From Octopus vulgaris (lineage: Eukaryota), in NCBI GenBank assembly GCA_951406725.2, contig OX597817.1, forward strand, positions 160,890,001-160,954,000: 64,000 nt of DNA. Direction: 5' to 3'. Under the pieces are notes generated by a model, which was not told the origin of the DNA, made no database searches, and saw only the letters and a list, made by a program, of their open reading frames with translations. Position numbers and translations under genes: made by a program. Below, piece by piece: positions 24,219 through 27,944 of this stretch. Every line of letters starts with the position of its first letter. The first letter of the stretch is position 1.

Positions 24219-24252
<34 letters not shown>

Positions 24253-24405
24253 TAAATATAAGAGAGTGTTCACTATATTGATCACTCTAGCACTAGTTAA
24301 TCCAAGAGGTTTCAACCACGAAAAATACATGTTTCCCATGAAAGCCGGTACGACTGTTAGTTCACACGGACAGGGCAAATAAAAAATAACAAAAATACAG
24401 ATTAT

Positions 24406-24483
24406 CTTGGGACAATTGTTTCGCTATTAATGAATTAAATGTAATATTACTTACAGTAATCCATTTGTAGCTCTTCAGCCAAG
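24406..24483 (-). ncRNA. Type I hammerhead ribozyme (also 24941-25018 and 25476-25553 on -)
   Basis: Exact reverse complement of the motif at 25909-25986. Confidence 0.85.
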
Positions 24484-25908
24484 GCTATCTTGATGAAATC
24501 CACTCAATCACACGCCAGATTTTACCATAACGATAATTACGCGTGCGGTTCAATTGATTACATCGGACGTTATAATTCAAATGCCCCAACCAACAGCGCG
24601 CCGAACTCTCACGGAAAAACAAATACAGCATTTAGAAATAAATGCAGCATAATTATAATTAATTAATAAGGGTGAGAGAATTAGATACTAATTTAATAGT
24701 ATATTTATTCCACACCAAGTGGCCTAGTGCTACGAGAAACCTGGATTATTATAATATTTTATAACATATTATAATATTTTCACAAAATAAATATAAGAGA
24801 GTGTTCACTATATTGATCACTCTAGCACTAGTTAATCCAAGAGGTTTCAACCACGAAAAATACATGTTTCCCATGAAAGCCGGTACGACTGTTAGTTCAC
24901 ACGGACAGGGCAAATAAAAAATAACAAAAATACAGATTATCTTGGGACAATTGTTTCGCTATTAATGAATTAAATGTAATATTACTTACAGTAATCCATT
25001 TGTAGCTCTTCAGCCAAGGCTATCTTGATGAAATCCACTCAATCACACGCCAGATTTTACCATAACGATAATTACGCGTGCGGTTCAATTGATTACATCG
25101 GACGTTATAATTCAAATGCCCCAACCAACAGCGCGCCGAACTCTCACGGAAAAACAAATACAGCATTTAGAAATAAATGCAGCATAATTATAATTAATTA
25201 ATAAGGGTGAGAGAATTAGATACTAATTTAATAGTATATTTATTCCACACCAAGTGGCCTAGTGCTACGAGAAACCTGGATTATTATAATATTTTATAAC
25301 ATATTATAATATTTTCACAAAATAAATATAAGAGAGTGTTCACTATATTGATCACTCTAGCACTAGTTAATCCAAGAGGTTTCAACCACGAAAAATACAT
25401 GTTTCCCATGAAAGCCGGTACGACTGTTAGTTCACACGGACAGGGCAAATAAAAAATAACAAAAATACAGATTATCTTGGGACAATTGTTTCGCTATTAA
25501 TGAATTAAATGTAATATTACTTACAGTAATCCATTTGTAGCTCTTCAGCCAAGGCTATCTTTATGAAATCCACTCAATCACACGCCAGATTTTACCATAA
25601 CGATAATTACGCGTGCGGTTCAATTGATTACATCGGACGTTATAATTCAAATGCCCCAACCAACAGCGCGCCGAACTCTCACGGAAAAACAAATACAGCA
25701 TTTAGAAATAAATGCAGCATAATTATAATTAATTAATAAGGGTGAGAGAATTAGATACTAATTTAATAGTATATTTATTCCACACCAAGTGGCCTAGTGC
25801 TACGAGAAACCTGGATTATTATAATATTTTATAACATATTATAATATTTTCACAAAATAAATATAAGAGAGTGTTCACTATATTGATCACTCTAGCACTA
25901 GCACTAGC

Positions 25909-25986
25909 CTTGGCTGAAGAGCTACAAATGGATTACTGTAAGTAATATTACATTTAATTCATTAATAGCGAAACAATTGTCCCAAG
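25909..25986 (+). ncRNA. Type I hammerhead ribozyme (also 26441-26518, 26975-27052, 27511-27588)
   Basis: cttgg-CTGAAGA-gcta...tagc-GAAA-c(aatt)g-TC^-ccaag. Stem I cttgg/ccaag; long stem II (gcta/tagc, aatggatta/taattcatt, tgtaa/ttaca); minimal palindromic stem III; GUC cleavage after 25981. Confidence 0.88.
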
Positions 25987-27869
25987 ATAATCTGTATTTT
26001 TGTTATTTTTATTTGCCCTGTCCGTGTGAACTAACAGTCGTACCGGCTTTCATGGGAAACATGTATTTTCGTGGTTGAAACCTCTTGGATTAACTAGTGC
26101 TAGAGTGATCAATATAGTGAACACTCTCTTATATTTATTTTGTGAAAATATTATAATATGTTATAAAATATTATAATAATCCAGGTTTCTCGTAGCACTA
26201 GGCCACTTAATTGTGGAATAAATATACTATTAAATTAGTATCTAATTCTCTCACCCTTATTAATTAATTATAATTATGCTGCATTTATTTCTAAATGCTG
26301 TATTTTTTTCCGTGAGAGTTTGGCGCGCTGTTGGTTGGGGCATTTGAATTATAACGTCCGATGTAATCAATTGAACCGCACGCGTAATTATCGTTATGGT
26401 AAAATCTGGCGTGTGATTGAGTGGATTTCATCAAGATAGCCTTGGCTGAAGAGCTACAAATGGATTACTGTAAGTAATATTACATTTAATTCATTAATAG
26501 CGAAACAATTGTCCCAAGATAATCTGTATTTTTGTTATTTTTTATTTGCCCTGTCCGTGTGAGCTAACAGTCGTACCGGTTTTCATGGGAAACATGTATT
26601 TTTCGTGGTTGAAACCTCTTGGATTAACTAGTGCTAGAGTGATCAATATAGTGAACACTCTCTTATATTTATTTTGTGAAAATATTATAATATGTTATAA
26701 AATATTATAATAATCCAGGTTTCTCGTAGCACTAGGCCACTTGGTGTGGAATAAATATACTATTAAATTAGTATCTAATTCTCTCACCCTTATTAATTAA
26801 TTATAATTATGCTGCATTTATTTCTAAATGCTGTATTTTTTTTCCGTGAGAGTTTGGCGCGCTGTTGGTTGGGGCATTTGAATTATAACGTCCGATGTAA
26901 TCAATTGAACCGCACGCGTAATTATCGTTATGGTAAAATCTGGCGTGTGATTGAGTGGATTTCATCAAGATAGCCTTGGCTGAAGAGCTACAAATGGATT
27001 ACTGTAAGTAATATTACATTTAATTCATTAATAGCGAAACAATTGTCCCAAGATAATCTGTATTTTTGTTATTTTTTATTTGCCCCTGTCCGTGTGAACT
27101 AACAGTCGTACCGGCTTTCATGGGAAACATGTATTTTTCGTGGTTGAAACCTCTTGGATTAACTAGTGCTAGAGTGATCAATATAGTGAACACTCTCTTA
27201 TATTTATTTTGTGAAAATATTATAATATGTTATAAAATATTATAATAATCCAGGTTTCTCGTAGCACTAGGCCACTTGGTGTGGAATAAATATACTATTA
27301 AATTAGTATCTAATTCTCTCACCCTTATTAATTAATTATAATTATGCTGCATTTATTTCTAAATGCTGTATTTGTTTTTCCGTGAGAGTTCGGCGCGCTG
27401 TTGGTTGGGGCATTTGAATTATAACGTCCGATGTAATCAATTGAACCGCACGCGTAATTATCGTTATGGTAAAATCTGGCGTGTGATTGAGTGGATTTCA
27501 TCAAGATAGCCTTGGCTGAAGAGCTACAAATGGATTACTGTAAGTAATATTACATTTAATTCATTAATAGCGAAACAATTGTCCCAAGATAATCTGTATT
27601 TTTGTTATTTTTTATTTGCCCTGTCCGTGTGAACTAACAGTCGTACCGGCTTTCATGGGAAACATGTATTTTTCGTGGTTGAAACCTCTTGGATTAACTA
27701 GTGCTAGAGTGATCAATATAGTGAACACTCTCTTATATTTATTTTGTGAAAATATTATAATATGTTATAAAATATTATAATAATCCAGGTTTCTCGTAGC
27801 ACTAGGCCACTTGGTGTGGAATAAATATACTATTAAATTAGTATCTAATTCTCTCACCCTTATTAATTA

Positions 27870-27944
<75 letters not shown>

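Follow-up and report, generated by a model that had tools for sequence, protein, structure and literature searches.

A head-to-head array of hammerhead units in Octopus vulgaris belongs to a dispersed retrozyme family probably inserted by a Penelope-like protein

The stretch analyzed here (the window) comprises 64,000 nucleotides (nt) of Octopus vulgaris DNA (GenBank assembly GCA_951406725.2, contig OX597817.1, positions 160,890,001–160,954,000, forward strand). Between 24250 and 27871 it holds an array of 535-nt units, each with a hammerhead ribozyme motif, and this array and its relatives are the subject of this report. An earlier note, made from the window sequence alone, had described seven near-identical type I hammerheads about 535 bp apart. 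That description was borne out, with a period of 532–536 nt and an identity of 98.5–99.5%. The array is not the simple head-to-tail repeat that the note supposed. It is inverted, with three units on the minus strand (motif starts at 24483, 25018, and 25553) and four on the plus strand (25909, 26441, 26975, and 27511), joined 5′-5′ at 25901–25905. The lack of an open reading frame (ORF) and the (TA)n flanks had been read correctly: the longest stop-free frame in the unit is 69 codons, and (TA)n borders the array on both sides. The unit is thus non-coding and, at 33% GC, below the 50% expected of a retrozyme. The reverse transcriptase (RT) plus GIY-YIG ORF of an autonomous Penelope-like element (PLE) was not found in the array unit, and Tandem Repeats Finder, with its period limit of 500, did not detect the array. 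Units are numbered from the first base 3′ of the predicted cut. The array ends inside (TA)n, where a target-site duplication, longer than 4 bp in retrozymes that have one, is unreadable. The features, in window coordinates, are:

24126–24249: left (TA)n-type target microsatellite
24250–25901 (minus): minus arm of 3.09 units, running from unit position 115 (5′ end) to unit position 161 (3′ end)
24406–24483 (minus): hammerhead motif, predicted cut after 24411
24941–25018 (minus): hammerhead motif, predicted cut after 24946
25476–25553 (minus): hammerhead motif, predicted cut after 25481
25902–25904: head-to-head (5′-5′) junction, three inserted bases
25905–27871 (plus): plus arm of 3.68 units, running from unit position 459 (5′ end) to unit position 288 (3′ end)
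25909–25986 (plus): hammerhead motif without the distal extension of stem I, predicted cut after 25981
26441–26518 (plus): hammerhead motif, predicted cut after 26513
26975–27052 (plus): hammerhead motif, predicted cut after 27047; stem I 26975–26979 / 27048–27052, core 26980–26986, stem II 26987–27035, GAAA at 27036
27004–27009 (plus): 5′ splice-site consensus in stem II, present in each unit; the exon would end at 27003
27511–27588 (plus): hammerhead motif, predicted cut after 27583
27745–27871 (plus): 127-nt "tail" between the two fixed 3′ ends, terminal on the plus arm only
27872–27942: right (TA)n target microsatellite
38373–41949: second, noisier array copy with a garbled junction, inside a duplicated block

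The duplicated block of about 14 kb (22639–36364 / 36779–49838) lies on either side of a 100-N gap, its halves mostly differing by 0.2–3% substitutions per 500 nt. It is likely an assembly duplicate, that is, an uncollapsed haplotype or a misjoin. The array copy at 38373–41949, which is not an independent locus, was left out of all counts.

All seven units have the layout of a type I hammerhead. Stem I pairs CUUGG with CCAAG (5 bp) and carries a distal 4-bp extension, the note having also described an extended stem I; in the first plus-strand motif the junction interrupts this extension, which is therefore missing. Next come the core CUGAAGA, stem II of 49 nt, and GAAA, and GUC precedes the predicted cut (that placed by the note after 25981 agrees). 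Stem III, of 2 bp, lies within the 8-nt palindrome ACAAUUGU. A type I descriptor matched the unit and 0/5000 shuffles. Rfam covariance models, a check that the note had proposed, gave no hammerhead in 25850–26600 at E values up to 10 (three matches, none relevant) and, for the window as a whole, none in a list of 150 out of 181 matches; the long stem II is the likely reason. As a circle, the unit is predicted to fold at −150.1 kcal/mol (z = −7.4 versus 40 dinucleotide shuffles), the self-pairing expected of retrozyme RNA. Core and stems are nearly invariant across 179 units that were selected on the 3′ core motif, and the register 3′ of the cut is kept in 179/179, the selection having used sequence 5′ of the cut.

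A search of a 2.8-Gb genome (G000) with the unit gave 316 matches from the best 40 scored of 1077 candidates, and a 22-nt cut-site pattern had 261 exact matches (control, 0). The 94 cut sites listed on contigs C1–C6 represent 22 loci plus the window duplicate, from which we estimate about 60 loci genome-wide. The 47 loci examined were the window, the 36 best matches, and 10 from the cut-site pattern list. Two arms were present at 34 loci, head-to-head in 34/34 and tail-to-tail in none; the other 13 were one-armed (one being a whole small contig, another having a 19-nt stub of a second arm). At 32 of the 34 two-armed loci, the 3′ end of one arm lay at position 148–164 and that of the other at 286–292, and a tail of about 130 nt was found on one end only, again at 32/34. 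TA-rich sequence lay beyond 78 of 81 3′ ends, the (TA)n target bias that is typical of PLEs. The longest A/T stretch of the unit (ends 175–201) served as an end just once, so the ends do not merely reflect TA microhomology. Head-to-head junctions, scattered in position, had 0–4 nt of overlap in 20 cases and insertions of 1–30 nt in 14, and none of the 68 5′ ends at junctions coincided with the cut (nearest, 510 and 29). Twin priming of L1 leaves a similar structure, with a head-to-head junction, both 3′ ends outward, and small overlaps or insertions. Unlike L1, the loci described here have fixed internal start sites, no poly(A), and several turns of one unit per arm.

An ORF scan found a PLE ORF attached to the unit at 0/47 loci. 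The note had named, as one finding that would overturn its reading, a unit that always occurs as the pseudo-long terminal repeat (pseudo-LTR) of a coding PLE; the element is instead independent. A related explanation is that the arrays are pseudo-LTR multimers, or that a PLE stump was amplified in place as a satellite by unequal crossing-over. Local tandem amplification of PLE termini has been proposed (Li, Clavereau and Pollet, 2026, bioRxiv 10.64898/2026.07.22.740005), yet the identical 535-nt unit occurs at 47 loci with unrelated flanks and no attached PLE ORF, and local amplification does not yield two fixed ends, one per arm, at each locus. This explanation is already largely refuted, and we accord it hardly any probability. 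The element is a young, ORF-less, non-autonomous, dispersed non-LTR retrozyme family, as the note had proposed, with the runs of at least two consecutive units and the dispersed copies that define retrozymes. Its kind and size are already known: non-LTR retrozymes are an established kind of element (Cervera and de la Pena, 2020, PMC7229834), and 535 nt, which the note thought unusually long, falls within the published consensus lengths of 51–972 bp, for elements described as derived from PLE termini (bioRxiv 10.64898/2026.07.22.740005). At one locus (L031, G000:C120), an entire 6.5-kb contig consists of 12 family units only, as expected of an unplaced long array or a collapsed circle-like repeat.

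The note had pointed to a PLE like the fossil at 10992–12262 (minus strand) as a possible mobilizer. The fossil is a broken Neptune-like PLE, comprising the RT and the start of the endonuclease, that sits between microsatellites. It was rejected as a partner, as none of its 36 matches is a close relative and it does not resemble the unit. Two young intact Neptune-type families, found by protein searches, show the same kind of ends as the retrozyme. One has a 717-aa frame in a 2.58-kb unit; the other, with a 727-aa frame in a 3.43-kb unit, accounts for the large majority of 62 matches. A protein search gave 840 relatives, none with a name useful for host or clade, and the Neptune label rests on the C-terminal GIY-YIG and cysteine linker, as described in PMC8557442, and not on a tree. 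Both families have their own hammerhead, insert into (TA)n, and possess two 3′ ends 66–68 nt apart. One arm per end was found at 8/8 clear two-arm loci of the 717-aa family (the ambiguous L110 left out; two more loci one-armed) and at 14/14 of the 727-aa family (five more one-armed). A young intact 717-aa PLE (L105+L106, G000:C1:57.209–57.223 Mb) carries an inverted arm opposite an arm of four full tandem copies; core position 4 of its hammerhead is C, whereas it is U in older relatives. In the 727-aa family (L202–L221, e.g., G000:C12:43.654–43.661 Mb), with dozens of intact copies, the ends lie 37–42 and 108 nt past the hammerhead cut. In vitro, a Poseidon PLE protein is described as cutting both strands of AT-rich DNA and initiating reverse transcription from two internal positions, between which the tail seen in genomes lies (Frangieh et al., PMC11167929). 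By analogy, we infer that the two fixed ends of the retrozyme may be such PLE start sites.

Comparison of units within and between loci bears on the template. Among 179 complete units from 42 loci, the mean number of substitutions was 0.47 between units of the same arm, 0.84 between opposite arms, and 5.37 between different loci. Where both arms held full units, they had the identical haplotype at 13 of 16 loci, compared with 5% identical between loci; the arms of the remaining three differed at 2–3 columns, mostly at a homopolymer. Of the locus-private substitutions, 11 were fixed in all units (six of them across both arms), three were partly shared, and 26 occurred in a single unit. Because the arms share one variant and no 5′ junction lies at the cut, we infer from these sequences that a circular monomer, read repeatedly, would best account for the locus-wide variants. 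The note had derived rolling-circle copying from the near-identity of the units; near-identity alone is insufficient, and the locus-private variants contribute more to the indirect support for a circular template.

We consider it fairly probable that the window array is a single two-armed insertion, for which a Neptune-type PLE protein would have cut both (TA)n strands and copied a single circular monomer RNA by reverse transcription, starting at two fixed internal sites, one for each DNA end. Arrays would be transcribed on the hammerhead strand, as splice-junction contigs of one run suggest. Paired hammerheads would then cleave 3′ of GUC, and the monomer would be closed by a host ligase, as in published retrozymes. 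The PLE protein would prime near position 160 on one DNA end and near 290 on the other, which are the ends seen in the DNA, and each complementary DNA (cDNA) would circle the template for 0.1–12 turns. The unfinished cDNAs would finally be connected head-to-head, presumably by end-joining, with the 0–4-nt overlaps or short insertions seen at the junctions. A competing fate of the RNA would be splicing of the stem II donor to a host exon, which would drop the 3′ half of the ribozyme.

The second arm could instead arise by fold-back, with self-priming on the first cDNA or on an antisense template, as modeled for head-to-head PLE structures in PMC3846280. This would account for the same variant in both arms. 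A copied arm cannot outgrow its template, however, and arm lengths in our set were uncorrelated (rho 0.00), with either arm the longer in a 17:17 ratio and differences of up to 3279 versus 85 nt. (The set, of 34 loci, was entered by hand, with L084 in, L043 out, and a few lengths approximate.) Moreover, the junction position of one arm seldom mirrors that of the other, and the arms stop at different fixed sites. We judge fold-back very unlikely.

An older and commoner sister family (L117–L136; 41 matches from the best 40 scored of 1656 candidates; unit of about 575 nt by eye) runs colinear with the unit between the hammerhead and position 290 (z = 9.4) and has the same two end positions. Five complete hammerheads were present in its 20 loci. 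Their stem I sequences have changed and mostly still pair, which argues, at the level of sequence, that the hammerhead fold is under selection; the palindromic stem III and the donor motif of stem II are also kept. A possible Sm-like motif after the cut was judged by eye not to be retained in the sister family.

Retention of the fold is relevant to an alternative that keeps the PLE twin priming and replaces the circle by an uncleaved linear multimer transcribed from the parent array, the hammerhead being a pseudo-LTR passenger. In vitro, the main substrate was RNA that had not been cleaved (PMC11167929), homogeneous daughters would be expected of a homogeneous parent array, and 5′ ends away from the cut fit uncleaved RNA as well. 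Yet 5′ truncation of a multimer can only shorten arrays, and arms reach 12 units. Single-unit variants should also be passed on as mosaics, whereas 11 private variants are fixed locus-wide and three are partly shared. A passenger hammerhead is likewise at odds with a core nearly invariant in 179 units and a fold retained in the sister family. We regard the linear multimer as unlikely, and the circular monomer as the better supported template.

Several observations weigh against the proposal of a PLE-copied monomer circle. The 36 best-match loci favor long, young arrays, and two loci depart from the end rule (L034, degenerate, at 255; L043 at 189). Contigs cannot separate a circle from a multimer. 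Self-cleavage after GUC and the monomer circle are predictions only; the hammerhead fold lies 2.3 kcal/mol above the local minimum, and the active hammerhead is absent from the circular minimum-energy fold. Hammerhead cleavage is described as dispensable for insertion in vitro, where no reads ended at the cut (PMC11167929), and one of nine Xenopus retrozyme dimers is reported to have cleaved (bioRxiv 10.64898/2026.07.22.740005). The unit has no similarity to either intact Neptune-type family (z = −0.75 and 0.69; −1.0), and its tail of about 130 nt compares with 66–68 nt in those families and 30–40 nt in the literature. Finally, blastn of the unit and the sister family against 99 PLE-bearing loci (39 + 40 + 20), which came from Neptune-like queries with the top candidates scored, found no partner; the sole matches were separate sister-family pieces (L102, L108) and one 17-nt match. 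A short motif likeness of the unit to the second Neptune family was not significant.

Sequencing runs in which the unit occurs, none of which is on record as RNA, bear on transcription. Contigs of X1, X2, X8, and X14 (four studies, two organism codes) span the unit and its head-to-tail joint; contig depths were not taken as expression levels. Two X8 contigs exit the unit at 27003/27004, the stem II donor, and enter sequences that follow intronic AG acceptors in G000. These splice-site joints indicate RNA of the hammerhead strand, in X8 only. The first acceptor is a Tc1/mariner-like 5′ acceptor found at four places, one of which has a same-strand array 1.9–2.4 kb upstream, so this joint is explained by splicing in cis. 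The second, seen in one contig with an exact join, is exon 2 of a secreted-peptide gene whose expression is very high (C18:42.04 Mb). G000 has no unit in the 80 kb upstream of this exon, and the donor variant has its nearest copy at a distance of 13 Mb. In X7 the exon follows exon 1 of the same gene, X13 contains the intron unspliced, and X3 has no contigs on this host exon. The chimera may be rare, the contig depth probably being dominated by the host part.

The chimera may reflect a private insertion, low-level trans-splicing, or an artifact; an insertion private to the X8 animal would give the joint in cis. The exact joint without an upstream copy in G000 raises an outside possibility, which we put forward as speculation, that retrozyme RNA, which once cleaved would retain a splice donor with no acceptor downstream of it, is trans-spliced onto abundant host pre-mRNAs and replaces their first exon. 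The mobile ribozyme would then act as a proto spliced leader, with stem II switching between cleavage and splicing. One leader on many mRNAs would be expected of a spliced leader; two acceptors were found, in one run, one with a cis source and one with none in G000. The predicted stem II pairs the first four bases of the donor, which would put folding in competition with splicing. No contig showed a joint between the stem II donor and an acceptor of the unit itself. The host exon (L137:1500–1602) encodes part of a short secreted precursor that has a signal peptide and a KR site, and the exon after it contains cysteine. Among the other contigs, those of X14 show an excess of A>G (11 of 20 changed places, at low depth), which is no more than a hint of editing. 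An X2 contig has a loose end at 27000, away from the donor, and X1 contigs share the hammerhead region and diverge at window positions 27076 and 27085, which suggests further related families in the runs.

As far as the published accounts describe them, metazoan non-LTR retrozymes (PMC7229834; bioRxiv 10.64898/2026.07.22.740005) resemble the octopus family in having non-coding units in tandem, all of which carry a type I hammerhead whose palindromic stem III is weak, and in low GC, a self-paired circular fold, size range, and co-occurrence with PLEs. In contrast to those accounts, the octopus family has head-to-head two-arm insertions, fixed 3′ ends, a tail, and (TA)n targeting, as well as a stem II of 49 nt with a splice donor. 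It also differs from Xenopus, where 21 of 57 retrozyme families are reported to match PLEs, in that no parent pseudo-LTR was found by homology in the 99 PLE-bearing loci. Insertions of endonuclease-containing, Neptune-type PLEs, as characterized in PMC8557442, PMC3846280, and PMC11167929, share the partial tandems, the inverted 5′-truncated copy placed head-to-head, the tail on one end, the (TA)n targets, and 3′ ends that lie downstream of the hammerhead; PLEs are known for inverted copies, tails on one side, and a (TA)n bias (PMC8557442, PMC3846280). Unlike such PLEs, the retrozyme has no RT-GIY-YIG ORF, has a longer tail than the published one, and makes up to 12 turns per arm. In the Drosophila virilis Penelope pseudo-LTR (PMC4209133), too, a spliceosomal intron boundary is described as overlapping the hammerhead, so that spliced and unspliced RNA differ in the ribozyme. 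There it is the intron's 3′ end that meets helix I, whereas in the present family the donor sits in stem II and is joined to acceptors of the host. PMC4209133 put forward circular templates, and PMC8969392 repeats the general picture. Mobilization of retrozymes by PLEs through circular RNA is presented as a hypothesis (PMC7229834; bioRxiv 10.64898/2026.07.22.740005), and PMC8557442 calls the origin of tandem and inverted PLE structures undefined. We found no octopus or cephalopod case, inverted retrozyme insertion, or retrozyme splice chimera in the article listings searched, so an entry in a supplementary table or repeat database is possible.

The window has other repeats. Short near-perfect palindromes beside microsatellites (23485–23604, 28451–28533, and 10019–10162) produce spurious microRNA matches and are probably remnants of inversions of PLEs or are like miniature inverted-repeat transposable elements. 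A mariner-type transposase fragment was recognized by eye at 9430–9765 (plus strand), and a 27-nt minisatellite of about 32 copies at 14717–15609 has long open frames rich in Pro/Thr or His/Gln.

The octopus family offers a rule that can be counted in genomes: one arm per start site, one variant per insertion, and no stop at the ribozyme cut. The end rule is common to two intact Neptune-type families, whose proteins suit the published in vitro assay. The octopus family is a test case for the PLE mechanism. The value of the family lies in genomic evidence on PLE-type twin initiation and a monomer bottleneck, and in a ribozyme-embedded splice donor seen in use. Two-arm insertions amount to inverted repeats of kilobase size, from which double-stranded RNA could form, and through its stem II donor the element can supply a first exon to host genes.

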